A stretch of 64,000 bases of DNA, taken from IMG/VR virus record IMGVR_UViG_3300017989_005288. The stretch is one strand, 5' to 3'. Of the stretch, positions 4,835 to 61,465 are shown piece after piece (within the stretch, counting starts at the first letter, position 1; each line of letters starts with the position of its first letter). This DNA comes from a virus. The position numbers and the translations under genes were made by a program. Under the pieces are notes generated by a model. It made no database searches, had not been told where the DNA came from, and saw nothing but the letters and a program-made list of their open reading frames with translations.

Positions 4835-7800
4835 GCTGGTCTTTCCTTACCAAAAAAGTCATACCAACTAATCCAACCCTCTAATTTTTGCGGCTCACAC
4901 TGCCAACCATATTGCTTTCTCTTTTTCTTGAACTCTGCAAAACTTTTAATTCCTTTACTTTGAACCTCTTTTTTCAACTCATCAAGTGTCAATTGTCTTG
5001 TCTTCTTCTTTCCAAGAAAGTCATACCAACTAACCCAACCTTTTTGTTTATCTGGATTAGAAGTCCAGCCATATTTCTTCCCTTTTTCACGATACTCTTT
5101 GGAGGTTTTAATTCCTTTACTTTGAACCTCTTTTTCCAACTCATCAAGTGTTAATTGTCTTGACTTCTTCTTCTTTCCAAGAAAGTCATACCAACTAACC
5201 CAACCTTTTAGTCCGCATAGATTAGAGGTCCAGCCATATTTCTTCCCTTTTTCACGATACTCTTTGGAGGTTTTAATTCCTTTACTTTGAACCTCTTTTT
5301 CCAATTCATCAAGTGTTAATTGTCTTGACTTCTTCTTTCCAAGAAAGTCATACCAACTAACCCAACCTTTTAGTCTACCTGGCATTGGAGTCCAGCCATA
5401 TTGCTTCCTTTTTTCGCGATACTTTTTGCCACTCCTAATTCCTTTGCTTTGAACCTCTTTTTTCAATTCATCAAGTGTCAATTGTCTTGTCTTCTTCTTT
5501 CCAAGAAAGTCATACCAACTAATCCAACCCTTCAAGTTGTGTGGCATTGAAGTCCAACCATATTGCTTCCTTTTTCTATGATACTCTTTGGAGGTTTTAA
5601 TTCCTTTACTTTGAACCTCTTTTTTCAATTCATCAAGTGTTAATTGTCTTAGTCTTGACTTCTTCTTTCCAAGAAAGTCATACCAACTAATCCAACCTTC
5701 TAATTTTTGCGGCATTGGTATCCAATTATGTTGCTCCCTTTTTCCATGATACTCTCTTTGACTTTTAATTCCTTTACTTTGAACCTCTTTTTTCAACTCA
5801 TCAAGTGTCAATTGTCTTAGTCTTGACTTCTTCTTTCCAAGAAAGTCATACCAACTAATCCAACCCTTCAAGTTGTGTGGCGCATATGTCCAACCATATT
5901 GCTTCCTTTTTCCATGATACTCTCTTTGACTTTTAATTCTTTTACTTTGAACCTCTTTTTTCAACTCATCAAGTGTTAATTGTCTTAGTCTTGACTTCTT
6001 CTTTCCAAGAAAGTCATACCAACTAATCCAACCCTTCAAGTTGTGTGGCGCATATGTCCAACCATATTGCTCCCTTTTTTCAAGATACTCTTTGCCACCC
6101 CTAATTCTTTTGCTTTGAACCTCTTTCTTCAATTCATCAAGTGTTAGTTTTCTTGACGTTAAAATCCAACATTTTTCTTTCAACTCTCTCCAAGTCTTAG
6201 TCCCAATCATAGGAGAAATATATCGTCTCAAGAAATCAGATGGGTCACATTTCTCTTCAAGCAAACCCAAATCAATTTCGCTCGTATCAACCCAATTCCT
6301 CGGCGGTAAAATGTGGTGCCCGAACATTACCTTCAAAGAAGCAATCATCTCCTCACAATGGTCTTTATCCTTCACACTTGCAACCAACTGTCTATTAGCT
6401 AATTTTTCAAACACTTTCCATTTCTTTTGTTTACTACCTTTATCAGGCATCTCCCTGATCAAATCATGCAAAATCTGAAGCTTCACATCGACAGAACTAC
6501 TTCCAAAATAATCAAACCATCGATCTCTGTCATTCTTCATACGCTTCACTTTACCCGTCTTTTTGCATCTGATTTTTACCAGTTTCGGTGGAAAGAAAAA
6601 CTCACTTATTGCCATTACAATAAGAATGCCCTTCAAATAGGAATTCAAACCTTCTCGTAATTTTCCCTTGTCCCAGTTTGAATACCCGACAACAGAAGGC
6701 AACAAATGATAAACAGCAGCATGGCTTTTCTTAGGATAATCACGAAGAGGACGACCCGCCATTTGAGCAACAAATGTGCATGACGAATGATTTCCAATAA
6801 TAATTTCCCGCGCCAATGGGACGTAATCAACACCTTCTACAAAACGTCGCAATGCAATAATAACATCTACATTGGGATTTTTTGACTTCCCACTCTTACG
6901 GATATAAATAGTCTTTTTTGCAATTGCGCGTTGGCTGCCTACAACAAGTTGATAGATTCGTCGCTTACGCCCTTTGATTTGCAACGTGTAGTATGGTTGC
7001 GTTTTCGACTCTTTTCCAATTTCAAACCGCTTGTCGGGATTCATCGCCCTAATCAACTTCTCAATCTCCTCGCGCTTCTTTTGAGAGCTTTCTCCACAAA
7101 CATCAGAGGACAAATAAACAACAGTCGGTTCAAACTTGTTTTTGAAAACACTTGTTATACCATCCAAACAATCATCTCTGTCGCAGATCAAAAAGTCATA
7201 GCTGAACGTTTTGAGCATTCGAACGCTTTTGCCTTTACTGTTTTTCTCAGTCATATAGTCAGCCATTGAAACAGTATGCGTAGTAAACTGTTCTTCATAC
7301 TCACGTTCAATTATACTATGATAATCACCTCGCATGTAAGTGCCAGTTGCCAACCCTACACGTTTTTTGTTATCCAAAAACCATTTCACCACTTTTCCAA
7401 GCTCGTTCGGTTCAGCTTCTCCGAATTCATACTCTGTCCATCTCAAGTGGTGTGTTTCATCAATCCAAAGTCCTACCTTACCAAAAAATCGTTGTTTCTG
7501 TCTTGATGTAAGCCGCTTGAAAAATTGTGCAAGAGTTTGGTGACTACAAATCTGAATCCTATCGCTTACGGAACTGCCTGCTCTTTCAAGAAACAAACGT
7601 AAATGATTGACAGTATTAAATCTGAAATTTGTTTCCGGTATGAAAAATATCTCTTTGCCATTCACCCTGACGTGGACCCTTTCATTGTAATTATCACCAA
7701 TAGCAATTTGAGGAACCGCCACAATTACCTTGTCAACAAGATTACGCGTTATATCGGAATGAGCGAGGAGAAGCATCAAAAGGGTTTTTCCGGAACCCAT

Positions 7801-7950
7801 CGGTGCTTTCATCAACCTCAAAGTAGCATCCAACAGTTTTTCAAACCCAGCTTGTTGATGCTGACGAAAATCATATGGCTTTGTCGGAACACAACAAAAA
7901 CTTCTATCAGCTTTTGTCCATCGGTTGTTGATAATTGTTACTTTTTTCAT
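4831..7950 (-). CDS. SF2 (DExH) helicase/ATPase with eight C-terminal integrase-repeat-like units
   Basis: Walker A APMGSGKT, motif II DETH, motif III ATGT, motif V EGVD, motif VI QMAGRPLR; C-terminal tandem repeats. Confidence 0.85.
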   Translation of the reverse strand: MKKVTIINNRWTKADRSFCCVPTKPYDFRQHQQAGFEKLLDATLRLMKAPMGSGKTLLMLLLAHSDITRNLVDKVIVAVPQIAIGDNYNERVHVRVNGKEIFFIPETNFRFNTVNHLRLFLERAGSSVSDRIQICSHQTLAQFFKRLTSRQKQRFFGKVGLWIDETHHLRWTEYEFGEAEPNELGKVVKWFLDNKKRVGLATGTYMRGDYHSIIEREYEEQFTTHTVSMADYMTEKNSKGKSVRMLKTFSYDFLICDRDDCLDGITSVFKNKFEPTVVYLSSDVCGESSQKKREEIEKLIRAMNPDKRFEIGKESKTQPYYTLQIKGRKRRIYQLVVGSQRAIAKKTIYIRKSGKSKNPNVDVIIALRRFVEGVDYVPLAREIIIGNHSSCTFVAQMAGRPLRDYPKKSHAAVYHLLPSVVGYSNWDKGKLREGLNSYLKGILIVMAISEFFFPPKLVKIRCKKTGKVKRMKNDRDRWFDYFGSSSVDVKLQILHDLIREMPDKGSKQKKWKVFEKLANRQLVASVKDKDHCEEMIASLKVMFGHHILPPRNWVDTSEIDLGLLEEKCDPSDFLRRYISPMIGTKTWRELKEKCWILTSRKLTLDELKKEVQSKRIRGGKEYLEKREQYGWTYAPHNLKGWISWYDFLGKKKSRLRQLTLDELKKEVQSKRIKSQREYHGKRKQYGWTYAPHNLKGWISWYDFLGKKKSRLRQLTLDELKKEVQSKGIKSQREYHGKREQHNWIPMPQKLEGWISWYDFLGKKKSRLRQLTLDELKKEVQSKGIKTSKEYHRKRKQYGWTSMPHNLKGWISWYDFLGKKKTRQLTLDELKKEVQSKGIRSGKKYREKRKQYGWTPMPGRLKGWVSWYDFLGKKKSRQLTLDELEKEVQSKGIKTSKEYREKGKKYGWTSNLCGLKGWVSWYDFLGKKKKSRQLTLDELEKEVQSKGIKTSKEYREKGKKYGWTSNPDKQKGWVSWYDFLGKKKTRQLTLDELKKEVQSKGIKSFAEFKKKRKQYGWQCEPQKLEGWISWYDFFGKERPA
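4840..6147 (-). repeat. eight in-frame coding tandem repeats of ~53-56 aa (~162-168 bp)
   Basis: Unit LTLDELKKEVQSKGIK..EY..KRKQYGW...P..LKGW(I/V)SWYDFLGKK counted 8 times; resembles the phage-integrase repeat unit (PF14882-like). Confidence 0.9.
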
Positions 7951-34516: not shown

Positions 34517-36499
<1,983 letters not shown>

Positions 36500-38928: not shown

Positions 38929-40872
38929 TCAAACATACCACCACTCATTTTTTGCATACCACTGCACCACCTGTTCAAAAGTATTATCGAGCGTATGAGT
39001 TTGTTCCCAGCCAAGATTCCGAATTCTGCTGGAATCAATTGCATACCGCCTATCGTGACCTGGGCGAATCTTGCTATCGTCAATGAATTGAATCATATCA
39101 TCTGGTTTACCAAGCACTTTCAAAACCCGTTTTGCCAGTTCAATATTCTCCATTTCTTCACTGCTGGCAACGTGGTAAATCTCACCAATTTTTCCTTTCC
39201 CAATCAAAAAGTAGATCGCCTTACAATGATCCAAAACATAAAGCCACATACGTCTATGCTTACCATCTCCATAAACAGGTAGAGGCTTATTCTTCATTGC
39301 TTTGTGCACAAATGTTGGCAAAACTTTCTGCGGATGTTGAAATTCTCCATAGTTGTTTTCCGTGCGGGTAATAATAATAGGCACACCGTATGTATTGCAG
39401 TAAGACAAAGCTAATAAGTCTGCCGCTGCTTTACTTGCAGAATATGGATTTTTTGGTGCTAAAGGTGAAGTCTCGGTATGTGCACCCTCAAGTATCGAAC
39501 CATAGACTTCATCAGTTGAAACCTGGATAAACAATTTCGGTTTGAACTTTCTCGCTTGTTCCAACAGGTTAAAAGTTCCAACCAAATTGTCACTGATGAA
39601 CGGCTTTGGCTCTCGAATGCTGTGATCGACAAAAGTATTATGACAGACAACATTACCCATACCACAAGCAAAGTTATGTGAACCTTCCACCTCCAAATCA
39701 TACACCCATCCATCATAATCAACATCTTCTTTTGTTTTCTTGTTCAAACCCCTGTGAAAATTTGAAAGAATTCGAAATTGCCAAATATCATTCCAGTTTT
39801 TCTTCTTGAGTTTTTGGCAGCGAACAGTAAAAGGCTTCTTCTGCATCGCCAATAAAAGGCTCAACTGATGCGCAAGTTTTGTTGAAGTCGTTCCGTATCT
39901 CTTGAAATCTTTTGTCCCGTCACCTTCACAAAGACATTCCCAAAAATATTCACGAAGAGAAGGTTCCAAATCAAAAATGAAATTAGGAAGATGCTTTTGA
40001 CCTGACCCCTTACCACAATTTTTAATCATTCTACGATAAAAAGTCTTATTATTCACTTCTAAGCGATAAACTCCTGCTTGTTTTTTCTTAGACACATAAG
40101 GCAAAAGACCATATCTTTTGCTTATATCCTCCGCGATTTGTTCTAACCACTTTCTATCATTTTGAGCAATAACCACAACATAATTTCCATTGGCCTTGTT
40201 AAAACACGCACAGCCTTCTGTCACGTATGCAGCTATAATCCTAAGAAAAGACTTGCTGACCTTCTTGTATGATTTCTTGTTCTCATTGATTTGACGGATA
40301 ACAAGAAGTTCAGGATTTTTCTCTGGTGTTGAAAGTTCTAAATTGGAAGCGTAAACAGAATGGTTTCCTGTAGCAGTAACACTTCCCCACTTTTGCGAGA
40401 GTTTCACAAGTTTCCCTTTGAACCTGTGACGCATAATTGACCTTATCGGCATCCACTGCCCACCATTCAAAAAACTCAAAGCCCTCGTTTGTTTTCCCCT
40501 CAATTTGATAACTTCGTATTGGCCCTTTTTCCGTGGCTTATTCTTCTTACTTTGCTGTGTCCAGAGTTCAGAAAAAGTCATGCACCGTGTTCCCACCACA
40601 GATTGTATAGGAACATACTCCTCCTCTGCAATACTCTTGGCAGCAAAATTCACAACTACGTCAATACCTTCAAGAAGCTCACTGATATCTCCTGTTAAAT
40701 CTCCAAATACAAGTCTAAAACGTGAACTGTTTTCAACCCATTCAAGCCGTTGCTTATTTCTTTGATTCGTATTCCGACCAAAACCAACAACAGAATCATC
40801 AGTAGCTTCCAAAACATGCTTGACAAAATGACTACCAATGAAACCAAAAATGCCAGTCACCAAAATTCTCAT
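38929..40872 (-). CDS. rmlB: dTDP-glucose 4,6-dehydratase containing an intein
   Basis: GIFGFIG, NFAAK|TFVDHSI, STDEVYG, YSASKA, PVYGDG, RPGHDRRYA. Confidence 0.9.
   Translation of the reverse strand: MRILVTGIFGFIGSHFVKHVLEATDDSVVGFGRNTNQRNKQRLEWVENSSRFRLVFGDLTGDISELLEGIDVVVNFAAKSIAEEEYVPIQSVVGTRCMTFSELWTQQSKKNKPRKKGQYEVIKLRGKQTRALSFLNGGQWMPIRSIMRHRFKGKLVKLSQKWGSVTATGNHSVYASNLELSTPEKNPELLVIRQINENKKSYKKVSKSFLRIIAAYVTEGCACFNKANGNYVVVIAQNDRKWLEQIAEDISKRYGLLPYVSKKKQAGVYRLEVNNKTFYRRMIKNCGKGSGQKHLPNFIFDLEPSLREYFWECLCEGDGTKDFKRYGTTSTKLAHQLSLLLAMQKKPFTVRCQKLKKKNWNDIWQFRILSNFHRGLNKKTKEDVDYDGWVYDLEVEGSHNFACGMGNVVCHNTFVDHSIREPKPFISDNLVGTFNLLEQARKFKPKLFIQVSTDEVYGSILEGAHTETSPLAPKNPYSASKAAADLLALSYCNTYGVPIIITRTENNYGEFQHPQKVLPTFVHKAMKNKPLPVYGDGKHRRMWLYVLDHCKAIYFLIGKGKIGEIYHVASSEEMENIELAKRVLKVLGKPDDMIQFIDDSKIRPGHDRRYAIDSSRIRNLGWEQTHTLDNTFEQVVQWYAKNEWWYV
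39637..40635 (-). mobile_element. 333-aa intein with LAGLIDADG-type endonuclease domain
   Basis: Begins Ser (SIAEEEYV), block B TGNHSV, AAYVTEG and LCEGDG blocks, ends YDLEVEGSHNF...VCHN before Thr. Confidence 0.9.
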
Positions 40873-40880
40873 CTCTCCTC

Positions 40881-41276
40881 CTATGCTGCCAGCGCTACCT
40901 TTCTCAACTCCCACCATTGCTTACAACGGTCATCGCAATGCCATCTGTAAGCAGTTGTAACTGCAAATATCAACTTTCTTTGCCAATGACCAATTTGTTC
41001 TTTTGTCGCTTCTGGCATATCACGCAACGGACAACTTCCTGGTTTGTTTTTGTAATAGTCAAAGCATGGCTCTCTGTATGCTCTGAAGATTTCGCAAAAC
41101 AGAAAATCAACAGCGGAATGGTATTCGTCTATTTTACAGCCATGCTTATGTTCAGCAAGTTTTCGAATTGCATGCCAATGATCTGAATTCTCTTGCATGA
41201 ACATTTCGACCTCTGGAAAAAGTGACAGACATAGTTCTCGAAGTTGCATTTGTTTGCAACACAACGACATTCTCAT
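40881..41276 (-). CDS. hypothetical protein
   Basis: ATGA-coupled start at 41276. Confidence 0.6.
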   Translation of the reverse strand: MRMSLCCKQMQLRELCLSLFPEVEMFMQENSDHWHAIRKLAEHKHGCKIDEYHSAVDFLFCEIFRAYREPCFDYYKNKPGSCPLRDMPEATKEQIGHWQRKLIFAVTTAYRWHCDDRCKQWWELRKVALAA

Positions 41277-43979: not shown

Positions 43980-46397
43980 TTATTCCACTGCAACTGATGC
44001 GATATATTCATCTTGTTCCAATCGCTTAATTGCTGTACCACGAGCAGCCCTACCTTGCTCTGACACCTCTGTAAAACGTGTCCGAATAGCAATATTCTGA
44101 TTCGTAATGGCAAACAAACTCGTATCCTCGTCTGGAACTATGACCTGACCAAACACCAAGTAGTCGCCTTTCATCAACTTGACTCCAATAACTCCCGTAC
44201 AACCTCTGCCTTGTTTTGGATAATGCTCCAGAGCAGTTCTCTTCGCAACTCCTCTTTGAGTGATTGTCAGCACGTATCCATTTTGATATGCTACTGACGC
44301 AGAAAGTGCCTCATCATCAGCAATCGCAAACCTAATGCCTTGCGCTCCTGCCGACTCCCTACTTGCCACTTCTCTAATGTTTGAAATCGCTGTACGCAAA
44401 ACACGTCCCATTTTGGTAACAATCACAACATCAGCATCCTTCTTTGCCACTACTGCTGATACCAATTTTCCACCAGCATCAACAGGGTAGAACTTTGTGG
44501 TTTTGTCTCGTGTTCTGTTCACTATAGAAGCCTGCATTCTGCAAAGCTTGCCTTTCGAACCAAGCATTACCAATGACTCGTCATCATCCAAAACCGATTC
44601 GGTAACAGATACCACACGTTCACCCTGTTGAAACTCTGGAATATAGCTTTGCAATGATTGTGGCTTTCTGCTACGATCCAAAGCAGGAATCAAATGCACA
44701 GCCAGTCGGTAACGGTTACCTTGGTCAGTAAATACCATCACATCATCGTGTGTGTTCGCTTGTGCAACATGGACAGGCACAACCCCGTCTGGAACTCGGA
44801 CTCCGCTTACTCCTCTACCCCGTCTTTGTTGAACTCGATAATCATCAATTGGAGTAGACTTGACAGTTCCATCTGACATAAAGATTAGAGCAACTATCTG
44901 CTGCTTGACTGTGTCCTTGGCCTCAATTGATCCGAAATCCGTAACAACATGAGTACGACGCACATTGCCAAACTGCTTTTGAATTTCCTTGACCTCTTCA
45001 TGAATGACCTCATCTACCTTTGCTTTGTCCTTCAGAATTGCATCCTGCTGAACAATGAAACTGGTCAATTCTTTTTGCTCCGCATCCAACTTATCGCAAT
45101 CCATTTTTGACAACCTTCGCAAAGGCATATTGAATACGTGTTCAGCTTGTCTTTTCGTAAGCTTTATACGACTCTGCAACTCAGTAACAGTCTTGTCCGC
45201 ATCACGACCATTACGAACAATCTCTATCACTAATGCCACTTGTGCGTTTGCCACAAGCATTCCATCCACTATCTCTTTACGTGATTCTGCCTGCTCTTTC
45301 CTGTAAGCAGTTCTCTTTCTAACTACTTCACGCCGAAACGTTATAAACTCGCTTAATACCTCTCTCAAACCGACGTTTCTTGGTTGGTTCTTACAAATAG
45401 CAACCGCGTTGAACTTCATATGGCACTGCAACCTCGTATGCCTGAATAAGCTGTTCAACACAGCAGTATGGTCTGCACGAGGAGCAACCTCAATGCAAAT
45501 CCGAATTCCTTTTTTGTCAGACTCGTCTCTGATTTCCTTAATTCCATCCACTTTGCCATCATTGATAGCAGCAGCAACTTCCTGCAAAATGTTTTCCTTG
45601 TTAGTAGCATACGGAATCGATTTGATAATGATGCTTTTGCTTTTACCCTCGGTCTCGAACTCTGTCAAGACTCGGTAAAGAAAAGTTCCTCTGCCATGCT
45701 CATAAGTACCATTACCACCAGACTTCAAAACTCCACCCAAAGGAATATCTGGCCCTTGAATGATGCGGCACAACTTTGCAACATCAATAGTTGGGTTGTC
45801 CAAGAAAGCAAGAGTAGCATCGCATACCTCGTTCAAGTTGTGCGGAGCAATATCAGTCGCCATACCTACCGCAATACCACTTGAAGCAGTTAGCAGTATC
45901 ATCGGAATTCTGGCTGGAAGAACAACTGGCTCTTTCTCCAATCCATCATAGTTATCAATAAACCTAACCGTTTGTTCTCCAATATCAGCAAAGTAAACCG
46001 CCTCGGCAAACTTGTGTAGACGCGCTTCCGTGTATCGGTACGCAGCAGCAGGTGAACCATCAACACTTCCAAAGTTGCCTTTACCATCAACCAATACGTT
46101 GTTCAAGACGAATGGTTGAGCAAGACGCACCATTGATTCGTATGCAGACCCATCTCCATGCGGATGGAATTTACCAATCACCTCACCAACAATTCTTGCA
46201 CTCTTTCTGTACGGTGAATTGCTCTTATATCCAGCATTCCACATAGCCCATAGAACACGTCGGTGTACGGGTTTCAACCCATCCCGCACATCAGGAATAG
46301 CTCGATCACAAATCACATACTCTGCATAAGTGAGAAAGTTCTCTTTCATTTCATCGCAGATGTCTGTGATCTTAACGTTTGTCATTTGCTCAGTCAT
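43980..46397 (-). CDS. gyrA: DNA gyrase subunit A
   Basis: PDVRDGLKPVHRR, FHPHGD, AAYRYTE catalytic Tyr, GyrA-box-like QQRRGRG, C-terminal pinwheel repeats. Confidence 0.9.
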   Translation of the reverse strand: MTEQMTNVKITDICDEMKENFLTYAEYVICDRAIPDVRDGLKPVHRRVLWAMWNAGYKSNSPYRKSARIVGEVIGKFHPHGDGSAYESMVRLAQPFVLNNVLVDGKGNFGSVDGSPAAAYRYTEARLHKFAEAVYFADIGEQTVRFIDNYDGLEKEPVVLPARIPMILLTASSGIAVGMATDIAPHNLNEVCDATLAFLDNPTIDVAKLCRIIQGPDIPLGGVLKSGGNGTYEHGRGTFLYRVLTEFETEGKSKSIIIKSIPYATNKENILQEVAAAINDGKVDGIKEIRDESDKKGIRICIEVAPRADHTAVLNSLFRHTRLQCHMKFNAVAICKNQPRNVGLREVLSEFITFRREVVRKRTAYRKEQAESRKEIVDGMLVANAQVALVIEIVRNGRDADKTVTELQSRIKLTKRQAEHVFNMPLRRLSKMDCDKLDAEQKELTSFIVQQDAILKDKAKVDEVIHEEVKEIQKQFGNVRRTHVVTDFGSIEAKDTVKQQIVALIFMSDGTVKSTPIDDYRVQQRRGRGVSGVRVPDGVVPVHVAQANTHDDVMVFTDQGNRYRLAVHLIPALDRSRKPQSLQSYIPEFQQGERVVSVTESVLDDDESLVMLGSKGKLCRMQASIVNRTRDKTTKFYPVDAGGKLVSAVVAKKDADVVIVTKMGRVLRTAISNIREVASRESAGAQGIRFAIADDEALSASVAYQNGYVLTITQRGVAKRTALEHYPKQGRGCTGVIGVKLMKGDYLVFGQVIVPDEDTSLFAITNQNIAIRTRFTEVSEQGRAARGTAIKRLEQDEYIASVAVE

Positions 46398-46405
46398 CGT
46401 TTACC

Positions 46406-48298
46406 TCACACAATGTCATCAAACTTCAATGCCTTTGCCAAAAAGTCTTTTCGTGCTTGAATATCTTCACCCATCAAACGATCAATGACCTCACGAGCCT
46501 GAATCTGGTCTTCAATCTGCACCTGTCTCAGCACTCGTGTGTTTGGATTCATTGCTGTCTCTTCAAGCTCATCAACACTCATTTCACCCAAACCCTTAAA
46601 CCTGCTTACTTCGATCCGTGCATCTTTGTGCTCTGTTTTGAACTCATCCAGAGCAGCAGCATCTTTTATGTACTGACTTTTTCCTCGACACGTCACTCTG
46701 AACAAAGGCAAATCGCAAACATACAAGTGACCTGCTTCAATTAGTTTGCGCATGAACTTGTGGAACATTGTCATCAGCAAACAAGTGATATGTCCGCCAT
46801 CCGGATCGGCATCGGCAAGCAGTATCACTTTGTGATACCGCAGATCGTCTATCAAAACATCTCGCGGCGTTACTGTCACATTCAACGCTGCAATGAGCGT
46901 ACTGATTTCTTTGTTTGTCAAACAACGTCCCAACGGTCTGCTATAGACATTCAGAGGTTTACCACGTAAGGGCAAAATCGCTTGAAATTGTCTATTGCGT
47001 GCATCCACGGCAGTTCCACCAGCACTGTCGCCTTCGACAATAAATAATTCACACAGTGTTGGGTCTTTGCTCGTACAATTTTTCAGCTTTCCTGTTAGTA
47101 CAGATACAACGCTCTTCTTTCTTTGGATATCACGTGCTTTCCGTGCTGCATCACGTGTTTTGATTGCATCAATGATCTTCACAACCACCGTATCAGCAAA
47201 CCGTTTGTCCTTTTTGAACTGCTTAGTAATTTGCTTTTGAATCCACTCACCAAAAGGCCAACGCAAATCTTCATTGTTCAGTTTGGTTTTGGTTTGTCCA
47301 CCAAACTGAGGTTCTTCAACACGTACACTGACAATCAATGTCAACCCTTCCACCACATCACTCTTGTTAACCTTCAGTTTGAGCCTTTTGAGCTCTGAAG
47401 ACGCATGATCTTCAATCGCTTTGCAAAGCGCATCCAATGCCGCATTGTAATGCACTCCACCTTCATGTGTAGCAATATTGTTGGCAAATGAATGAATTTG
47501 ACTTTCAAACTGATCATCATACACAAATGCTACATCCACTTCACAGCCTTCGACATCGGTAGATTGAATGCGAATTGGTTCGTGAATCAATTTGCTATCA
47601 CGCGTCAAATACTTCACATATCCATTCAAACCATCAGCAGAACAGAATTCTTCCTCGGTTCCATCAAACCAAAACAGCTTGATTCTCAACCCTGCATTCA
47701 AAAAAGCCAACTCTCTCAAACGTCGTTGGATAACCTCCTTGTCAAACTCACAACGCGAGAAAATCGTCTTGTCTGGCTTGAATATGACCTCTGTACCCGT
47801 TTCTCGCTTAGGACAACTACCAACCACATCCACATCTTTCTTGGTGGGCTTTGCACGTTCATACTCTCGCACATAGATTTTGCCATCACGCTTGATGGTA
47901 ACCATCATATGTTCTGAAAGCGCATTGACAACAGCTGCACCAACTCCATGCAAACCTCCGGAAGTACGATAGCGAGTATCGGCTCCGCCAAACTTACCAC
48001 CAGAGTGAAGCATTGTTAGCACAACATCTACGGTTGGGATTTTCTCAGTTGGATGATTCTTAACAGGAATGCCTCGACCATCGTCGACAACTTGCACTCG
48101 GCCATCAACAGTAAACTTGATCGCAATGTTTTTACAGAACCCCGCAACCGCCTCATCAATCGCGTTGTCTACAATTTCCCACACGAGATGATGAAACCCA
48201 CTCGTACTCGTATCACCTACATACATTGCGGGACGCTTTCGTACACCCTCTAACCCCTTCAACACCTTGATGGATGATTCATCATATTTGGCTGTCAT
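46406..48298 (-). CDS. gyrB: DNA gyrase subunit B
   Basis: EIVDNAIDE, GGKFG, SGGLHGVG, VEGDSAGG, PLRGK, DADPDG, KGLGEM. Confidence 0.92.
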   Translation of the reverse strand: MTAKYDESSIKVLKGLEGVRKRPAMYVGDTSTSGFHHLVWEIVDNAIDEAVAGFCKNIAIKFTVDGRVQVVDDGRGIPVKNHPTEKIPTVDVVLTMLHSGGKFGGADTRYRTSGGLHGVGAAVVNALSEHMMVTIKRDGKIYVREYERAKPTKKDVDVVGSCPKRETGTEVIFKPDKTIFSRCEFDKEVIQRRLRELAFLNAGLRIKLFWFDGTEEEFCSADGLNGYVKYLTRDSKLIHEPIRIQSTDVEGCEVDVAFVYDDQFESQIHSFANNIATHEGGVHYNAALDALCKAIEDHASSELKRLKLKVNKSDVVEGLTLIVSVRVEEPQFGGQTKTKLNNEDLRWPFGEWIQKQITKQFKKDKRFADTVVVKIIDAIKTRDAARKARDIQRKKSVVSVLTGKLKNCTSKDPTLCELFIVEGDSAGGTAVDARNRQFQAILPLRGKPLNVYSRPLGRCLTNKEISTLIAALNVTVTPRDVLIDDLRYHKVILLADADPDGGHITCLLMTMFHKFMRKLIEAGHLYVCDLPLFRVTCRGKSQYIKDAAALDEFKTEHKDARIEVSRFKGLGEMSVDELEETAMNPNTRVLRQVQIEDQIQAREVIDRLMGEDIQARKDFLAKALKFDDIV

Positions 48299-49960: not shown

Positions 49961-50329
49961 TTACAGGTTAACCTCCATACAACCTTTTCCACCATGAGGC
50001 ATATCAAATTTCTCAAGACTTTTGGACATGCATTCCTGCTCAATCTGTTTTGCTTGATCTTCAGGAATGACCTGTGTTATTCCTTCGTCGATATTTCGTT
50101 CAATATTCTCAAAAGTATCCCAGATAGGCATCCCGGAACGCGCTGCTTCACCTGTTCCTCCCAACATCACACATTTCACCTTTTTCACTTTCTTACCCAG
50201 TTCTTCAACCTCTACTTCTGGCCCAATAATCTTGTAAACACACTCACCAAATTTGTCTTCCAAAGTTTTAGTTTTAACTTTGATAAAACTGCCAATCGAG
50301 ACTCTCTGCGCCATTTTCCCCTCCTTCAC
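49961..50329 (-). CDS. hypothetical protein
   Basis: Coupled ORF. Confidence 0.65.
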   Translation of the reverse strand: MKEGKMAQRVSIGSFIKVKTKTLEDKFGECVYKIIGPEVEVEELGKKVKKVKCVMLGGTGEAARSGMPIWDTFENIERNIDEGITQVIPEDQAKQIEQECMSKSLEKFDMPHGGKGCMEVNL

Positions 50330-51291
50330 CTTTTCACAACTGTAATGTCCTTCGTGTTATTGAAGAAACGGCCATCACCATCCTCAAACTTCTGCAATGG
50401 AATTGCTACAATATGCCCTTTCTTTACATCACGAGAAAATTTCATAAATGCATTGTTCCAAACGTAAAATCTCATTTCATCCATATCATCGCTAAGCGTA
50501 ACAACCATCATCTCATTACCATTTTTAGACGTTTTTCTGGTAATACGGTCTATTCGTCCAAACACATATGGCGATTCTCGCTGCTTTACTTCACCAATTG
50601 TACACCAGCGATTATCCTTAATTTGCTGTGCATATTGTAGTAAAATCGGCTCTCGTGTCAAGCAAATCCCAACTGCCTCTGCCTCTTTTTCTTGCCATTC
50701 ATCTTCTTTCAATAACTTTGGTGCAGTTTTTTCCTTACGCAATTCAATATACTTCTCTAAAACATCATTACGCTCACCAAAATCATCAAACGCACCTGCG
50801 GACAACAAACTCATAACCACTCGTTTGTTAATCTTACGCTTCGGAATTCGGGTAAAGAAATCTTCCATGCCAGAAAATGGCTGCAACCCTTCAATCAAAT
50901 CAGCTGATTTTCCTACCTGCTTTATATGACTCAACGCAAACCTGATATTTCCATTATCATCAATTCGAAACTTAACACCACTTTGATTCACTGATGGACT
51001 GACTACTTTGATTCCCATCTTCCTTGCGTAATTGATGTATTTTACATGCCCAGGCAAAGCTCCTTTTCCACCTGAAGTCGAAGCATTATTCATCAAAGCA
51101 GTCAAATACTCTGTTGGGAAATGATATTTGAACCAAAATTCAGCACCACTTATTGCGGCGTATTCGAACGAGTGAGAATTGCTCACAACTACGCCATTTG
51201 CATAAAATACATGCTCATCACTATCTACAGTGATATCTCTGGTTTTCGTTTTTCCAACAAATCTTACCTGAGAAATCTTTTCAGCATGCAC
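50326..51291 (-). CDS. dnaE: DNA polymerase III alpha, C-terminal half, with split-intein C fragment
   Basis: After VVSN: SHS..YA..S...WFKYHFP.EY.TALMN, FALSHIK.VG, HhH, terminal OB fold; probable GTG start at 51291 after GGAGGT. Confidence 0.88.
   Translation of the reverse strand: MHAEKISQVRFVGKTKTRDITVDSDEHVFYANGVVVSNSHSFEYAAISGAEFWFKYHFPTEYLTALMNNASTSGGKGALPGHVKYINYARKMGIKVVSPSVNQSGVKFRIDDNGNIRFALSHIKQVGKSADLIEGLQPFSGMEDFFTRIPKRKINKRVVMSLLSAGAFDDFGERNDVLEKYIELRKEKTAPKLLKEDEWQEKEAEAVGICLTREPILLQYAQQIKDNRWCTIGEVKQRESPYVFGRIDRITRKTSKNGNEMMVVTLSDDMDEMRFYVWNNAFMKFSRDVKKGHIVAIPLQKFEDGDGRFFNNTKDITVVKR
51178..51291 (-). mobile_element. split intein C fragment (~38 aa)
   Basis: KISQVRFVGKTKTRDITVDSDEHVFYANGVVVSN followed by Ser. 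Confidence 0.9.
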
Positions 51292-52204
51292 TCCCACCTC
51301 CCAGCATTGCATTCAATTTTGCAATCACTTCTTGACGATCATTGATAATGTTGTCCTCCCAGAAACGTGCTACTCTCAAACCTTGCTTTCTACTGTAATC
51401 ATCCTTTTTGATATCACGAAACCAGTTGACTCTTTGCGTTTTTGTCTCAGGACCTTCAGGATAAAACTTCGGGTTGGAATGAAAATAGTCACCATCAACT
51501 TCTATATAAAGTCCAACCATAGGTACGAAGAAATCGAACACAAACTTCCCTTCTTGTTTCTCCTCAATGTAGGAAACATGCAAATCATCCAATATTTGAG
51601 CAACTATTCTTTGCGGCTTAGATCGAAGCTGCGAAAAAACTCCATCCTTGATTTGTTGCAATGTTGTCTGACGAATCTTGTTTTTTGTTTCTTCAGAATG
51701 CTTATGACCAGTATGTCCATGAACCTTTCTCTTCTTTGCAGATTGTGATTGCTTCTTCCTCGTATCTTCTGATGCTTTTAAACCCGTAATTTTTTTTGCA
51801 ATCCTATTTACAATCGTATTAGTAGCACGTGTTTGCCCCTTGTTCCATGACTCCTTACCAAACATAGGATTGCCTTTACCTACTCTATCACGTTTCATCC
51901 TTTCGATATGTGCAATCCATTTTGGATCGCTACGATCTGCATGCCCCCTAACATATCTCATGAATACCAATTGTCTACCACTGTTATTCACTTTTATTCG
52001 TTTTCCACACCCACAAATGCATTTCGGAATTTCCAACCCACAGTATTTTTCAAAGTAGTCCTCAATTGATAGCCCATGTTTCTTGATGTGGGAGACAAAA
52101 CGCCAGCACCAATACCTGCCCTCCTCATTTTTCATATCTTTTACCACAGTGTTGCAGATCACACATCTCTCCCAATATCGTTCCTCAACAACTGCATATT
52201 GCAT
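51281..52204 (-). CDS. free-standing homing-endonuclease-like protein (Zn finger, NUMOD3-like, Vsr/DUF559 domain)
   Basis: CVIC..H..H, CICGCG, GKGNPMFGK / HSEETKNKI, DFFVP...IEVDGDYFH...RFWE. Confidence 0.8.
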   Translation of the reverse strand: MQYAVVEERYWERCVICNTVVKDMKNEEGRYWCWRFVSHIKKHGLSIEDYFEKYCGLEIPKCICGCGKRIKVNNSGRQLVFMRYVRGHADRSDPKWIAHIERMKRDRVGKGNPMFGKESWNKGQTRATNTIVNRIAKKITGLKASEDTRKKQSQSAKKRKVHGHTGHKHSEETKNKIRQTTLQQIKDGVFSQLRSKPQRIVAQILDDLHVSYIEEKQEGKFVFDFFVPMVGLYIEVDGDYFHSNPKFYPEGPETKTQRVNWFRDIKKDDYSRKQGLRVARFWEDNIINDRQEVIAKLNAMLGGGSAC

Positions 52205-52227
52205 CGTGTGAACTCCTTTCCAATTAT

Positions 52228-52259
52228 GTTCACTATATGCAATATGCAAGAATATAAAA
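52228..52259 (-). promoter_or_regulatory. AT-rich motif upstream of the endonuclease gene
   Basis: ATATTGCATATAGTGAA resembles ATATTTGCATATTAGTGAA at 29170..29188. Confidence 0.4.
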
Positions 52260-52269
52260 GAATTATGTA

Positions 52270-55215
52270 TTATTCGTCCTCACAAATAACCTTATGATCT
52301 CCTTCTAACACTTCCTCTAACCGACGCTTAACTCCATCTTCACAGAGGTATTTATGATTCATTGACGAACTGATCGTCTTGCCAGACTCTAAAGTGACTT
52401 CCCAAACTTCCTCCTCTGAGTCCATGACGTCAACAACCTCAACAAATTTGCAACCACTCTCCCCATCTGGCGCTTTCACTTTATCTCCAACAGCTATATC
52501 TCCAAATAGTCTCATCCCATCTGGAGTCTCAACAACACAATCAAGTGTCAAGCAGCGGTTGAAGCCATACTCTGCAAAAGCCTTACACAACTGCCACCAA
52601 TCTTCAACCTCTCTCTGAGTTACTTCCCCAGCTTGTATTCGCTGCTGAGCACCCTCTAAAAATTTCTCGTGCAATACATCAAGCGCTTTTGCATCTCCTT
52701 TTCCTTTGATTAACGCTTTGCGCAATCTATTTGCATCAATTGCATCAAAACCAGAGAGAGCTTGTGCAATCTTTTGCACCTGTTCTTGATAAACAATAAT
52801 CCCATGTGTTTCCTCAAGCGCTTCTCTCAAACATACCGGTACAGTGTACCTTTTCCTCTTGTGCTTTCTTTCTGCGTATTCTCTATCCATTCCCATATCA
52901 CGCGGACCTGGTCGAATCAATGCTGTTACAGCACTGATATCAAAAATGCTTTCCATTTTTACAGCATCAGCAATCGGCTTAGTTGCTGGATTTTCAAATT
53001 GGAATATCCCAACCAAATCGTGCTTCGAACTGATTTGGATTGCTTCCTTCTCATCAATATCCACATCCCTTTTTCCAAGCCTCTTTCCACGTCTCTGTTC
53101 GATATAATCCACTGCATCCTGAATGATATCAAGATTGTTCAACCCTAAAAAGTCGTACTTAACCAGACCTACTGCTGACAATTCATGAGTTGCTAATCCT
53201 TCTGTCCAAGCAGAGACTATTTGATCACTTTTGTCCCGATAGACAGGAACCTGATTCTGGATATCCAAATTGGAAATGATCATGCCACCAGCATGTTTCC
53301 CCATATTTTTGACTTGGTTACGCAAAATCATAGCGTGCTGGTAGACTTCAGGGTATTTTCTGAAATATGCTTCCAAATCCGGATAATGCTTAAACAACTC
53401 ATCAAATTCCATCTGGTCAACACGCTCTTGATGACTGTCATCCCCTTCCCCTACTTGAAAACTGGCAAGAGCATCGATCTTTTTAGTTACTCCCATCGCT
53501 TCCCAAACATCCAAGCCCAATGCTCTTGCAACATCAATAATCACAGAAGCTGTTTTGTAAGTTGAGTACGTTCCTATTGAGCATGTATGTTTTTCACCAA
53601 ACGTATCTACGACATGCTGCTTAACCCAATCACGTACGCGTTTTTGGAAATCCAAATCAATATCTGGACAATCATCCTTTCTACCGTAATCCAAAAATCG
53701 CTCAAACAGTAATCCGTACTGGATTGGGTCAAGGTCTGTTATACTTAAGCAATATGAAACTAAACTCCCTCCTGCACTACCACGACCCCAGCCTACCGAC
53801 CATTCCCCAAACTTCTTTTTCGTATCACCTACGACCTTATCCACAACAAGGAAATAGTCTGCATAGCCTAACTCTGTAATAACCTTCAACTCAAACTCAA
53901 GACGTTCTTCATATTTTGGAATTGAATCAAGCCCGCGTTTTCTCAAACCTGCTCTTGCTCGTCTACACAGCTCATTGTTCGAATCTTTGTACAAACGAGG
54001 CAATTTGAAAGATGAATCCAACTCAATATTCTCAGTACCAATTGCAATGCGGCGTGTGTTCAAAATTGCTTCATTCAAAACTTCTTCAGTAAACACCGGA
54101 CTCTTGTACTTCTCTTTCCATAATTGTCTCAACTCTACCTCTGTCCGATAATACAAATTTCTCACATCAAACTGCCAAACTTCTTCAGGCTTTTCAACTT
54201 TATCGAGTATCGTCTTGCCTGTTCGAATCAACATCAACAAATCATGCGTATCAGCAAATTCTGGGTACAAATAATGACTGTCAAGCGTAACAATAAGTGG
54301 TGCACCCACTTTTTGAGCAAACTGAATAAGCTTATGATTAATCGCAACTTGCTCATCCCACTCAATCATTACCAACTCGATATAGAATTCGTCAAAAGCT
54401 TCTGTATATCGATCATATGCCACCTTTGCTGCAAGAAAATCATCTTCAGCAAGAGCTTGCGCAATTTCTCCCGCATAGCAAGCTGACGACCCTATTACAC
54501 CTTTTCCATACTTTTTCAGGTTTTCATAGTTGCATCTTGGCATGTAGTAAAAACCATTCAGCTGTGCATCATTATGCAACCGAACGATATTGTAAAACCC
54601 TTCAAAATTTTTCGCAAGCAACAAGAGATGGAAATTACTACGATGCTTTTTTCTTTCCTCTGGGTCATCTCCCCGGTAGTCATTGACGTATGCTTCCATT
54701 CCAAAGATTGGCTTGATTCTTGCCTCACGACATTGTTTATACTGCTTAATCCATCCACCCACCGCACCATGATTTGTTACTGCACAAATGGTCTGATTTC
54801 TGCTTTCCAATAGTGCAAGCAAATCATCAACTCGGCCAAGCCCATCTCGTATTGAAAACTCGTCATGATGGTGCAAGTTAATAAAAATATCTCCACGAAC
54901 TTCTGCTACTTTCTCCAACAATCCTGGACTTGTTTCTCCATCTCTCCACCAAGGCAATTTTCTCGTCAAATTGCAATCAATTTGGATTGCCAACTTTGCT
55001 CTACTTGCAGCTATTTCCTGCATCAAAATGTCATAAGCTACGGATTTGTCGTCTGATTTTGGATATGTAATTTCGTACTGAGTTTTATCAAGCAAAAATT
55101 CCGATACTACTCTCGTCAAATCATAATCTTTCTGAGAGCAAATAAACAGAACAGGCTTACCGCACTTCAGTCTATCCTCAACTTCATGCTGTTCATAAAG
55201 CTCAGTTAATGCCAT
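52270..55215 (-). CDS. dnaE: DNA polymerase III alpha, N-terminal half, with split-intein N fragment
   Basis: PHP NLHHHDEFS.RDG, GRGSAGGSLV.Y, PDIDLDF, H.GG, K.DFLGL, YQEQ, FAEYGFNR. Confidence 0.92.
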   Translation of the reverse strand: MALTELYEQHEVEDRLKCGKPVLFICSQKDYDLTRVVSEFLLDKTQYEITYPKSDDKSVAYDILMQEIAASRAKLAIQIDCNLTRKLPWWRDGETSPGLLEKVAEVRGDIFINLHHHDEFSIRDGLGRVDDLLALLESRNQTICAVTNHGAVGGWIKQYKQCREARIKPIFGMEAYVNDYRGDDPEERKKHRSNFHLLLLAKNFEGFYNIVRLHNDAQLNGFYYMPRCNYENLKKYGKGVIGSSACYAGEIAQALAEDDFLAAKVAYDRYTEAFDEFYIELVMIEWDEQVAINHKLIQFAQKVGAPLIVTLDSHYLYPEFADTHDLLMLIRTGKTILDKVEKPEEVWQFDVRNLYYRTEVELRQLWKEKYKSPVFTEEVLNEAILNTRRIAIGTENIELDSSFKLPRLYKDSNNELCRRARAGLRKRGLDSIPKYEERLEFELKVITELGYADYFLVVDKVVGDTKKKFGEWSVGWGRGSAGGSLVSYCLSITDLDPIQYGLLFERFLDYGRKDDCPDIDLDFQKRVRDWVKQHVVDTFGEKHTCSIGTYSTYKTASVIIDVARALGLDVWEAMGVTKKIDALASFQVGEGDDSHQERVDQMEFDELFKHYPDLEAYFRKYPEVYQHAMILRNQVKNMGKHAGGMIISNLDIQNQVPVYRDKSDQIVSAWTEGLATHELSAVGLVKYDFLGLNNLDIIQDAVDYIEQRRGKRLGKRDVDIDEKEAIQISSKHDLVGIFQFENPATKPIADAVKMESIFDISAVTALIRPGPRDMGMDREYAERKHKRKRYTVPVCLREALEETHGIIVYQEQVQKIAQALSGFDAIDANRLRKALIKGKGDAKALDVLHEKFLEGAQQRIQAGEVTQREVEDWWQLCKAFAEYGFNRCLTLDCVVETPDGMRLFGDIAVGDKVKAPDGESGCKFVEVVDVMDSEEEVWEVTLESGKTISSSMNHKYLCEDGVKRRLEEVLEGDHKVICEDE
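52273..52554 (-). mobile_element. split intein N fragment (94 aa)
   Basis: CLTLDCVVETPDG...VGDKV...SSSMNHKY then an acidic tail and stop. Confidence 0.9.
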
Positions 55216-57698: not shown

Positions 57699-58622
57699 TT
57701 ATGCTCTTTTTGCTAAAATATAGTTGATTACTGGCTTTCGTACCTTCCTCTTTTTTGCAGCCTTTTCAAGCATATCAAAAATATCCTCTGAGGTAGCCTC
57801 CAACTCACGAATGCTCTGAACAAATTCGCTTGTGTCAACCATTTCTGGTCGCTCTCGAATCTCTTCAAGCAATGTTTTTGCGAACACTTCATCGCCCGAT
57901 CTCACATTGTTCAGTTGGATTTCCTCAACCTCAACTCGCTTACCCAAATTAACTTCTACAACACCAACTCTAACTACCCTGGTTTTTTCATTGATTGCTT
58001 GTCTTGCCAAAGCCCCTGGCGACCAAACCAACGTCTCATTCTCATCATAGTATGGCCGCATTCCAAAATGAAAGTCACCAAAAATTACAGCGCTATATTT
58101 GCATGGTAAAAAATCCTCAAGCAGATATGTCTCAAAAGGCACCGTATTGCGAGTAATCAGGTGATGTGCTACAAGAATGGATTTCTTTTTGCGTGTAATC
58201 GGTTTTTGAAATGCTGGAAGAAATTCATCATAGCAATGACAAGGATACAAAACAACGTCATCAAATTCCTTCGGTTCCCACATTGTTTCAAACCGTGGAC
58301 AATGACGTTCCATGAAATTCAGTGTTGATGAACGATAGCTATCAGGGTTATATCCAACTGTATCATGCTGACCAACAATCGCATAAGTAGTCAAACGACT
58401 GCTGCAAATAATATCCATAACCGAATTGATTATCTCGTAATTGAAAATCCGATGACTATTGAAAAAGTCACCCATAAACACAACAAAATCAACCCCTTTT
58501 TCGATAGCCAAACGATATGTCTCTTCAAGCTTAACCAAAAGACTTTCCGAAAAATTGTCTATTCGATGTTCAGGTCTTTGGCCTGACATCTGCAAATCGG
58601 AATAAGCCAGAAATCTTGACAT
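57699..58622 (-). CDS. SbcD/Mre11-like metallophosphoesterase
   Basis: SDLQ, GDFF, GQHD, AHH, GDFH, PGAL.R. Confidence 0.85.
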   Translation of the reverse strand: MSRFLAYSDLQMSGQRPEHRIDNFSESLLVKLEETYRLAIEKGVDFVVFMGDFFNSHRIFNYEIINSVMDIICSSRLTTYAIVGQHDTVGYNPDSYRSSTLNFMERHCPRFETMWEPKEFDDVVLYPCHCYDEFLPAFQKPITRKKKSILVAHHLITRNTVPFETYLLEDFLPCKYSAVIFGDFHFGMRPYYDENETLVWSPGALARQAINEKTRVVRVGVVEVNLGKRVEVEEIQLNNVRSGDEVFAKTLLEEIRERPEMVDTSEFVQSIRELEATSEDIFDMLEKAAKKRKVRKPVINYILAKRA

Positions 58623-59136: not shown

Positions 59137-60092
59137 CCTCCCGGTTTGATGTTGCTAATCGTGTAAGGCTCACCCAACTTGTCTTGAGAACCATATCCGC
59201 CATGCTCTTTACGAAAGAATGCTCCACGCTTTACATAGGGTTTTGCTTTTTCCACAATGCTCTCAAATTGCTCAGGATTCAACTGTTGAAATGCCTTAGC
59301 AATTGCAACATTTTCTTCAAGTTGAGGCACATTATCATGTCCAACAATCACTGTACTCACTGGACAAGACATTGCAAGTGTAAGTGGTTCCCAAGCAGTT
59401 GTAATACCTTTCGGATGAAAAATATGTCCTTGTGCAAAAGCTTTCATTCCTACAACACCCATGTCACGATCCATTGCAGAAGCCATTACTGAATAGAATG
59501 ACTTGTCCATCGCAATATCAGCCGAATTTGCTGGACACAACACCGTATCGAAATCAAATCGATTCATCATCTCCATAAGTACATCGGGAGACTCATGCCC
59601 AGTAAATCCGAGATAACGAACTATGCCTTGGTCCCGCATTTCAACCAAAGCCTGCAAAGCTCCACCTGGCTTTACAACCTCGTCTATCTCATCAACATTA
59701 GTAAGACTATGAATCTGCCATAAATCAACATAATCCGTTTTCAACCTCTTCAATGATTTTTCAAGTAACGCAAGAGACTTATCACGACTGCGCTCATGCG
59801 TTTTTGTAGCCAAAAAAATCTCATCGCGAAACGCAGGAATTACATCTCCGTACAAATCCTCTGATGGGCCATAAACTGGAGAAGTATCAAAATAGTTGAT
59901 ACCCAACTCATATGCACGCCGAATAATATCACGACAATTTTCTGGATTACCACGTCTTTCCAGTGCACCTTGGCCACCAAGTGAAAAGATGCAAACATCA
60001 AAACCTGTTTTACCAAGTGGCCTTTTTGAGATTGTAGCATTGCTAAGCAGCAACTTAGCAATTTCTTTTATTTCGCGTGCAACATACTTCAT
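59133..60092 (-). CDS. aldo/keto reductase with phage-type N-terminal leader
   Basis: RPLGKTG, GINYFDTSPVYG, LATK, SL.RLKTDYVDLWQIH, GMK. Confidence 0.9.
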   Translation of the reverse strand: MKYVAREIKEIAKLLLSNATISKRPLGKTGFDVCIFSLGGQGALERRGNPENCRDIIRRAYELGINYFDTSPVYGPSEDLYGDVIPAFRDEIFLATKTHERSRDKSLALLEKSLKRLKTDYVDLWQIHSLTNVDEIDEVVKPGGALQALVEMRDQGIVRYLGFTGHESPDVLMEMMNRFDFDTVLCPANSADIAMDKSFYSVMASAMDRDMGVVGMKAFAQGHIFHPKGITTAWEPLTLAMSCPVSTVIVGHDNVPQLEENVAIAKAFQQLNPEQFESIVEKAKPYVKRGAFFRKEHGGYGSQDKLGEPYTISNIKPGG

Positions 60093-61465
60093 CGTCTTGG
60101 AGTGCCTTTTCCCCCAATTCGAGCAATTTCATCCATCCTTGATTCAGGAACACCTAATTCGCCCAAAACTGTATACACAACCAAGTCGGGTTGATTTTCT
60201 GCGCTATCCAGCTCTTTATCCAACTTATAAAGCCCACGATGAACAACACTATTCGACTTCATAACACGGCTAAGCATTTCGTAGCCATGTTCGAGATTTT
60301 CTTGTGGAATCACATCAAGAACCTTTGACTTTCCAATCACTACACAAGCTGCTATAGAAGCAATGTTCAAATCCAATTCCGCAACCAATATGTTCCTACG
60401 CAAATTGTCACGAATAGCATAGCTAATATCCGTAGCACTATCCCATTTTATCAATGGTGTTGCTCCAAAAGTAATCACACCGCTGGTAAGAACTCCTGCC
60501 AAATCAGACCTGTCAAACGTAGTTATCGCATTCTCGCCTCTTGTAGCAGCAATATTGTTAAACAGGTGAAACAAACCACTAATGCTTTGATTAGCCACAC
60601 CCCAAAACTGCGTCACAGGCAAACCTGGGTATAGCTTGCTGATACGGTCATTGTCAACGATAATCAAAGGCGAAATGCTTCGGCCCGCTATTTTGCCTTT
60701 GTCCCTTCCTACTTTCCCAAAAAGCATAGTCAAAACGTTGTGCGCGTTATAGTTGACCTTTTGTCCTTCGCCAGATTGAGGCATAGATACCAGTACACCA
60801 ACAACAGGAGGTTGACCAGGACCACCCTCAAGCTTGAAAGATTCAGCAATATCATGACTGATATCAACAAGCGTCTCTACAGAACCACTGCCTGTTCCTC
60901 CTCCAGCTCCAATGCAAATCAAAATACGCTCCCAATCTTTCCCAAAGCTCCTTTTCATCAAATCGTAGACGTCTTCATAATACTGTTTGACTGCCTGCTT
61001 TCCTTTTTCCGGTTCTTTTCCTGCACCACCTTCACCAATATCCATCACCAGCTTATTCTCTTCTGGAATGTTGATTGCTGTTAAATCCTGACTATTTGTG
61101 TTAATCGCACAAACACGCCGATAGCCTAACTTGTAAAAAGTTTCTACCATTCGTGCGCCAGCTTGACCTGCTCCAATAAACGCAAATTTGAATGCTACAT
61201 CGCACTCATCATGGACAACTTCTCTTTCCTCCACATCAGCAGGCATCGGAATGTTTGGAACAACAAATCCACTCTGGTTTTCCATGGGAGTTTCTCCTTT
61301 AGGTTTATCTTCTCCGGTATCCATACCGGCACTCAAAGCATTCACATCCAAGTCCAACTTCTTTTTCCCCATAACTCTTTCTCCCGTGCTTCGCTCGACG
61401 TCATCATCAATCACTATTTCAACTTTATTGCCAACCCTCCGAAGCATGAACCTTTTCAGTTGCAC
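60089..61465 (-). CDS. tubulin/FtsZ-superfamily GTPase
   Basis: IGAGQAGAR, AINTN, GEGGAGK, signature GAGGGTGSG, DND, FDRSD. Confidence 0.88.
   Translation of the reverse strand: MQLKRFMLRRVGNKVEIVIDDDVERSTGERVMGKKKLDLDVNALSAGMDTGEDKPKGETPMENQSGFVVPNIPMPADVEEREVVHDECDVAFKFAFIGAGQAGARMVETFYKLGYRRVCAINTNSQDLTAINIPEENKLVMDIGEGGAGKEPEKGKQAVKQYYEDVYDLMKRSFGKDWERILICIGAGGGTGSGSVETLVDISHDIAESFKLEGGPGQPPVVGVLVSMPQSGEGQKVNYNAHNVLTMLFGKVGRDKGKIAGRSISPLIIVDNDRISKLYPGLPVTQFWGVANQSISGLFHLFNNIAATRGENAITTFDRSDLAGVLTSGVITFGATPLIKWDSATDISYAIRDNLRRNILVAELDLNIASIAACVVIGKSKVLDVIPQENLEHGYEMLSRVMKSNSVVHRGLYKLDKELDSAENQPDLVVYTVLGELGVPESRMDEIARIGGKGTPRR

Follow-up and report, generated by a model that had tools for sequence, protein, structure and literature searches.

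Split inteins whose two halves lie next to each other, with the gene of a free-standing nuclease between them, were described in 26 metagenomic loci by Dassa et al. 2009 (PMC2677866). Their paper reports hairpins, Vsr-like nucleases, spacers of 27-51 nt and overlaps of 6-69 bp between the nuclease gene and the C-terminal intein half (IntC); it also describes three DnaE loci (DnaE-1, -2 and -3), one of them with a Vsr-like nuclease, at insertion points differing from the cyanobacterial one. The EDxHD nuclease family, first seen in these fractured genes, was defined by Taylor et al. 2011 (PMC3239194), and a 75-residue stretch of the finger domain is the intein hot spot of PolIII alpha (Novikova et al. 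2016, PMC4760082). Here we describe a fractured dnaE on the minus strand of a 64,000-nt stretch of the virus record IMGVR_UViG_3300017989_005288 (the whole stretch is hereafter called the window), which stems from a large uncultured phage. The polymerase is encoded in two pieces bearing the intein halves, with a nuclease gene between them. Very probably, the gene of a free-standing homing endonuclease split this phage dnaE within a mini-intein; trans-splicing and homing are the proposed mechanism.

The dnaE locus comprises three consecutive open reading frames (ORFs; 55215..50326), and genes in this part of the window all lie on the minus strand, to which the coordinates of the locus refer. 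The first ORF, from ATG 55215 to the stop codon at 52270 (981 aa), encodes DnaE-N, i.e. an N-extein of 887 aa (52555..55215) with an N-terminal extension of about 110 aa, the PHP domain, the Pol III alpha catalytic domain and the finger domain, ending in FAEYGFNR and followed by the N-terminal intein half (IntN) of 94 aa plus a TAA stop codon (52270..52554), which starts with Cys1 and extends from CLTLD to ICEDE. After a spacer of 65 nt (52269..52205; 52192..52269 with the 5' leader of the nuclease), the free-standing homing endonuclease of 307 aa is encoded from ATG 52204 to the stop codon at 51281 (51281..52204). The third ORF (51291..50326, 321 aa) starts with GTG 51291 and encodes an IntC of 38 aa (51178..51291) with the terminal Asn38, followed by the DnaE C-extein of 283 aa plus stop codon (50326..51177), which begins with Ser+1 (SHSFEY) and contains a helix-hairpin-helix (HhH) region and an oligonucleotide-binding (OB) fold. 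Pfam searches identified PHP, DNA_pol3_alpha and DNA_pol3_finger in the first ORF, NUMOD3 (26 bits, cut-off 20.4) and DUF559 in the middle one, and HHH_6 plus the tRNA_anti-codon OB fold in the third. In a longest-ORF listing, which uses earlier start codons, the three ORFs measure 990, 322 and 328 aa. The shorter versions were preferred because the database gene calls (981, 307 and 321 aa) and the starts of relatives support them: ATG 55215 corresponds to the DnaE-N starts in the related contigs L004 and L006, and the ATG starts of relatives likewise back the shorter ORFs.

The initial annotation had placed a fractured dnaE at 50326-55215, composed of a DnaE-N ending in FAEYGFNR and continuing into a 94-aa IntN with a Cys start, a DnaE-C opening with an IntC of about 38 aa that ends in VVSN before SHS, and between them a free-standing NUMOD3/Vsr-like nuclease with its own ribosome-binding site. 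All of this was recovered from the sequence, the nuclease through its ORF, its Pfam matches and its fold. Its further statement that fractured genes of this type are known from phage metagenomes agrees with Dassa et al., the three DnaE loci included. As in the fractured genes of these authors, two ORFs on the same strand together encode the host enzyme, with IntN in frame at the end of the first and IntC opening the second. Their loci, above all the three in DnaE, also resemble the window in having three same-strand ORFs, a short spacer with a hairpin before the nuclease start, a nuclease 3' end overlapping IntC, a Vsr-like nuclease with NUMOD motifs, DnaE as host and a phage-like origin. Their DnaE loci stand outside the five fully assembled ones, whereas the window holds the whole gene together with its genome context. 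The layout has been known since 2009, dnaE included, and the understanding of how such elements work is unchanged. What the window adds is a fractured DnaE gene that is complete and independently assembled: the two extein ends, the two intein halves and an intact EDxHD nuclease are all there, and diverged alleles accompany it.

IntN contains the splicing motifs block A (CLTLD) and block B (S-x-x-H, here SMNH), and IntC contains block F (TRDI..V.S..H.F.ANG) and block G (VVVSN); together with Cys1, Asn38 and Ser+1, the residues of a class 1 split intein are all present. When compared with PDB sequences, IntN matched the DnaB intein 6bs8 (E = 1.3e-6), the DnaE intein 7qil (1.4e-4) and the gp41-1 intein 6qaz (2e-4). 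IntC aligned end to end with the Npu DnaE IntC (4qfq_B, residues 4-37), finishing on the terminal Asn; its E value of 0.24 is weak owing to the shortness of the sequence. The net charge of IntN is -14, and IntC is basic in its N-terminal half. A complex of IntN and IntC was predicted with an interface score (ipSAE) of 0.71, compared with 0.00 for the best control, at a partner confidence (pLDDT) of 75 and with at least 94% of contacts agreeing between runs, a pass that may only reflect likeness to the split-intein complexes already solved. In the calibration, 51 of 78 solved complexes attained the 0.71 mark, as did 2 of 108 mismatched pairs.

Like the cyanobacterial split DnaE inteins (Ssp and Npu, insertion point a), the window intein resides in the finger hot spot of the same host protein, starts with Cys1, ends with Ser-Asn, has an IntC of similar length and combines an acidic IntN with a basic IntC. 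It differs from them in its insertion point (GFNR-SHS as against AEY-CFN, the hyphen marking the site), in its +1 residue (Ser here, Cys there), in its low sequence similarity and in the position of its halves, which are adjacent with a nuclease gene between them and not at distant loci. With gp41-1 it shares the origin in a phage fractured gene in addition to the IntN similarity; the host of gp41-1 is the gp41 helicase. The gp41-1 intein also combines Cys1 with Ser+1, has an H-x-FYAN motif in its IntC and carries a penultimate His; Cys1 with Ser+1 occurs in the natural split inteins NrdJ-1 and IMPDH-1 as well. Since it matches solved inteins only distantly, with 6bs8 as the best PDB hit, it is reasonable to regard the window intein as a candidate orthogonal Cys1/Ser+1 split intein.

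The junction of the two exteins was located by several routes. Joined, they read YGFNRSHS with neither a gap nor a duplication. The phrog_405 profile was matched by the N piece at positions 37-793 and by the C piece at positions 793-1055, tblastn matches to phage DnaEs ended at residue 896-897 of the 990-aa frame, and the exteins joined in silico aligned gap-free to the one-piece DnaEs of contig L005 and phage GBK1 across YGFN(K/R)SH. Restoration of GFNRSHS, as proposed from the sequence alone, is therefore corroborated by the shared profile position 793 and the gapless alignment. The proposed offset from the cyanobacterial site was correct too: judged by the cyanobacterial extein consensus AEY/CFN (PMC8484483), the insertion after GFNR lies four residues downstream, and the window intein is not an allele of site a. 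A literature search for the native extein string CFNKSH gave no match.

The nuclease matched PHROG homing-endonuclease (HEN) families and consists of an N-terminal Cys/His cluster, NUMOD3 repeats and a C-terminal EDxHD/Vsr-like domain at about residues 198-300 (51613..51305). Its family is large (3411 cluster representatives at E <= 1e-3). With the single sequence no PDB match was obtained, and a homologue profile was needed; the family profile matched I-Bth0305I (3r3p, 6.9e-9), Vsr (1cw0, 1.6e-8) and the DUF559 protein 3hrl (1.4e-9). In 47 nuclease homologues D224, G238, H242 and D264 were invariant and E235 nearly so (motif IEVDGDYFH), and the catalytic Asp, Glu, His and Asp of the EDxHD family are conserved in the window protein. 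The AlphaFold (AF2) model had a mean pLDDT of 93.7, and its best PDB fold match in Foldseek was the catalytic domain of I-Bth0305I (3r3p_A; TM 0.82 by target, root-mean-square deviation 2.9 A), followed by Vsr. By profile, predicted fold and catalytic residues, the protein is an EDxHD/Vsr-like homing endonuclease. It resembles I-Bth0305I (PMC3239194) in the fold of the catalytic domain, the catalytic residues and the position of NUMOD motifs N-terminal to the nuclease domain. I-Bth0305I originates from a recA group I intron and has NUMOD2-like motifs, whereas the window nuclease is free-standing within a dnaE split intein, has NUMOD3 motifs and possesses the additional N-terminal Cys/His cluster.

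The start of the nuclease gene is embedded in a hairpin (52249..52192), in which the AUG (52204-52202) is paired in the stem and the Shine-Dalgarno sequence lies in or beside the loop. The predicted RNA fold has -26.3 kcal/mol (z -4.55), and none of 200 shuffled sequences was equally stable. In L004 the nuclease gene is likewise preceded by a hairpin in analogous position, with a different sequence and z -2.4. The ribosome-binding site of the nuclease is GGAAAGGAG. At the other end, read directly from the sequence, the 3' end of the nuclease gene overlaps the IntC start by 11 nt (51281..51291; 22 nt in L004), and the GTG start codon of IntC is preceded by a GGAGG located inside the nuclease coding sequence. 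A promoter-like motif, which had also been ascribed to the nuclease gene, did not hold up: no sigma-70-like site was found in the spacer, and the region is no richer in such sites than shuffled sequences. Likewise, the late-promoter box TATAAATA is absent from the sequence at the nuclease spacer, and the spacer motif is not repeated elsewhere in the 64-kb window.

Comparable alleles were found on other contigs. L004 has the same cassette at GFNK-C...SN-SHA, with an IntC of 38 aa starting with ATG and a nuclease 48% identical to that of the window (BLASTP; 50% by a separate pairwise alignment). L006 has the same split intein, again with a 38-aa IntC and an ATG start, and a gap of 150 nt in place of the nuclease gene; this gap encodes in frame the last 49 nuclease residues (37% identity, E = 9e-11). 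In L018 the nuclease remnant measures 73 aa. Thus, two relatives (L006 and L018) are without most of the nuclease gene, yet they keep the split intein. Identities among the window, L004 and L006 are 49-66% for the intein halves and 48-60% for the exteins, and none of these three alleles deviates at Cys1, SxxH, block F, Asn or Ser+1. Judged from the alignments, the invariance of splicing residues across diverged alleles indicates long co-descent under selection. Stop codon, ribosome-binding site and start codon were retained in L004 and, despite the deletion of the nuclease, in L006 and L018; such remnants would be expected if the 3' end of the nuclease gene is kept for the translation start of the downstream half. 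Among named phage records, DnaE relatives were less than 35% identical and none contained the cassette: dnaE of phage GBK1 is in one piece, and that of phiT1 is split elsewhere, without a nuclease of this type. The first scan of viral contigs with the C piece had yielded a single IntC-like match, in L003, which proved to be unrelated.

For the window locus we infer splicing, cleavage, homing and hairpin control along the following lines. Two polypeptides would be made, DnaE-N-IntN (981 aa) and IntC-DnaE-C (321 aa), and the acidic IntN would pair with the basic N-terminal half of IntC to form one Hint fold. Class-1 splicing would then proceed through the Cys1 thioester, attack by Ser+1 and cyclisation of Asn38, yielding a DnaE of 1170 aa with the native GFNR-SHS junction in its finger domain. 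The hairpin over the start codon would restrain the 307-aa nuclease, which may cut the intein-free dnaE of co-infecting relatives near GFNR-SHS, so that repair would transfer the entire IntN-nuclease-IntC cassette. In addition, the downstream half takes its ribosome-binding site and start codon from the 3' end of the nuclease gene. Replication might accordingly need trans-splicing, and the intein might be orthogonal to others, as the initial annotation suggested.

Some observations weigh against this scheme. The penultimate intein residue is Ser and not His, as it also is in cyanobacterial DnaE inteins such as Npu. Divergence is about equal in the intein halves and in the exteins, which points to long vertical descent and not to recent homing; the nuclease may therefore no longer be mobile, and most of it is already gone from two relatives. 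The spacer of 65 nt is longer than the 27-51 nt in the loci of Dassa et al. As a whole, the window locus is probably active.

Alternatively, the intein halves might not splice and instead hold the DnaE pieces together non-covalently, as in the fragmented NrdA of Aeh1. The missing penultimate His would suit this explanation, as would the tolerance of an intein-less break elsewhere in the same dnaE of L004 and L006. However, the splicing residues have stayed invariant although 35-50% of positions differ between the alleles, neither half is truncated (94 and 38 aa), and in the case of a contiguous 139-aa relative a working DnaE requires splicing in cis. We consider a non-splicing intein unlikely. 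Still less probable, by a clear step, is that dnaE is a decaying pseudogene hit by a selfish nuclease, with replication performed by another polymerase. The contig measures at least 96 kb, of which the window covers 64 kb, and a second polymerase could sit outside it, but no other DNA polymerase was detected among the ten other large ORFs scanned in the window. Moreover, each of the three ORFs is intact and has a good ribosome-binding site, no Pol III alpha domain is missing, and the three-ORF layout survives in alleles that are only about 50-60% identical.

The possibility that a contiguous intein had been misassembled was checked on independent contigs. Identical proteins of the locus were found on contigs from separate assemblies, and contigs from four runs belonging to three studies (sediment and seawater metagenomes) spanned IntN-nuclease-IntC with 0 differences and no joints; the comparison was made with contigs, in which minority variants do not show; two of the runs possibly share a data set, and the window itself may derive from some of them. 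Because these contigs bridge the locus without differences, misassembly is very unlikely. An artefact or a repair at the RNA level, i.e. a misassembled or frameshifted one-piece intein or a nuclease residing in a self-splicing intron inside the mini-intein, would fit the common reading frame of DnaE-N and DnaE-C and the intron-encoded nature of I-Bth0305I itself, but is very improbable given the bridging contigs, an Rfam search of 50900-52700 that returned no family and hence no group I or II intron (E up to 1), the little room for an intron (only 65 nt upstream and nothing downstream of the nuclease ORF) and the stop, ribosome-binding site and start kept in L004, L006 and L018.

The fractured gene of the window represents one of several states found at the same DnaE position. 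In scans of viral and metagenome contigs, the GFN(K/R)-SH site is heavily used by inteins. Empty sites were present in L005, L012, L016 and L038; one-piece inteins measured 357-433 aa and mini-inteins 139-201 aa, including a contiguous mini-intein of 139 aa in L019 that belongs to the same intein family. Split alleles with free-standing EDxHD nucleases, the state of the window, extended to further ones with free-standing nucleases in L020, L021/L022, L023, L030 and L034, and L006 and L018 represent the split state with a nuclease remnant only. Fusions of IntN and nuclease and one-piece inteins with an in-frame EDxHD domain completed the spectrum. In the metagenomic proteins P0041 and P0120, DnaE-N-IntN runs into the nuclease with no intervening stop codon. 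In the metagenomic P0070 a nuclease domain is followed by an HhH region on one polypeptide, which by its domain matches looks like a nuclease-DnaE-C fusion. These three proteins look like intermediate fusion states, but sequencing errors are possible.

In two further one-piece DnaE inteins, each found on two contigs, the splicing blocks flank NUMOD3 and an EDxHD/Vsr-like nuclease domain in the same reading frame: P0126 (L043:1527-4976) at the GFNK-SH site and P0108 (L044:3001-8217) at the cyanobacterial-type Y-SFN site. In a 2025 preprint survey (10.1101/2025.01.02.630785), split inteins and antisense ORFs are the only settings in which inteins have Vsr-like nucleases; inteins with an in-frame EDxHD domain would therefore represent a type not described before. 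Tentatively, and with somewhat more doubt than confidence, we suggest that the GFN(K/R)-SH site may preserve every stage of the intein/homing-endonuclease life cycle for one nuclease family. If true, the series would make the gene-breaking and domain-capture model of Dassa et al. directly testable. The allelic series at one site also provides material for studying the breakage of inteins by free-standing nucleases, the fusion of the two and the later loss of the nuclease.

Further breaks were observed in the dnaE genes of relatives. In L006 (2610-9218) dnaE is distributed over four ORFs; in addition to the GFNK-SH split intein with its nuclease remnant, it bears a one-piece LAGLIDADG intein in PHP (GSSA-C), a second split intein at GRG-SAGGS without a nuclease, and an intein-less break. 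This intein-less break, shared with L004 (L004:2880-3230, L006:6090-6480), immediately precedes the catalytic PDIDTD motif. Upstream of it the ORF has gained a short tail (..TFEL or ..TFEV), and the downstream ORF has a leader of about 95 aa repeating a GSL..L...DPI motif from upstream of the break; the window dnaE is unbroken at this position. The related dnaE of L005 (1-2213), whose C-extein is 55% identical to that of the window, has an empty GFNK-AHA site and is broken about 60 residues upstream (YQEQ-C), where a different split intein resides together with a different Vsr-like nuclease.

Elsewhere in the window, an ORF of the dTDP-glucose/GDP-mannose 4,6-dehydratase type (38929-40917, minus strand) matched Intein_splicing and LAGLIDADG_3, so that the genome holds a second, one-piece intein. 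A ResIII/DEAD-type helicase (4831-7950, minus strand) ends in about nine tandem repeats of about 40 aa (..LTLDELKKEVQSK..GW.SWYDFLGKKK), and a protein of similar repeats is encoded just upstream of dnaE in L004 (476-1342). IntC-like tblastn matches at 5523 and 5034 fall in the repeat tail of this helicase and were dismissed as chance. Around dnaE, a replication module on the minus strand (34517-36496, 43980-48298, 57699-58622, 60089-61465) includes an NAD-dependent DNA ligase, GyrB plus GyrA, an SbcD-like phosphoesterase and a tubulin/FtsZ-family GTPase, which fits a large phage genome from sediment or seawater.

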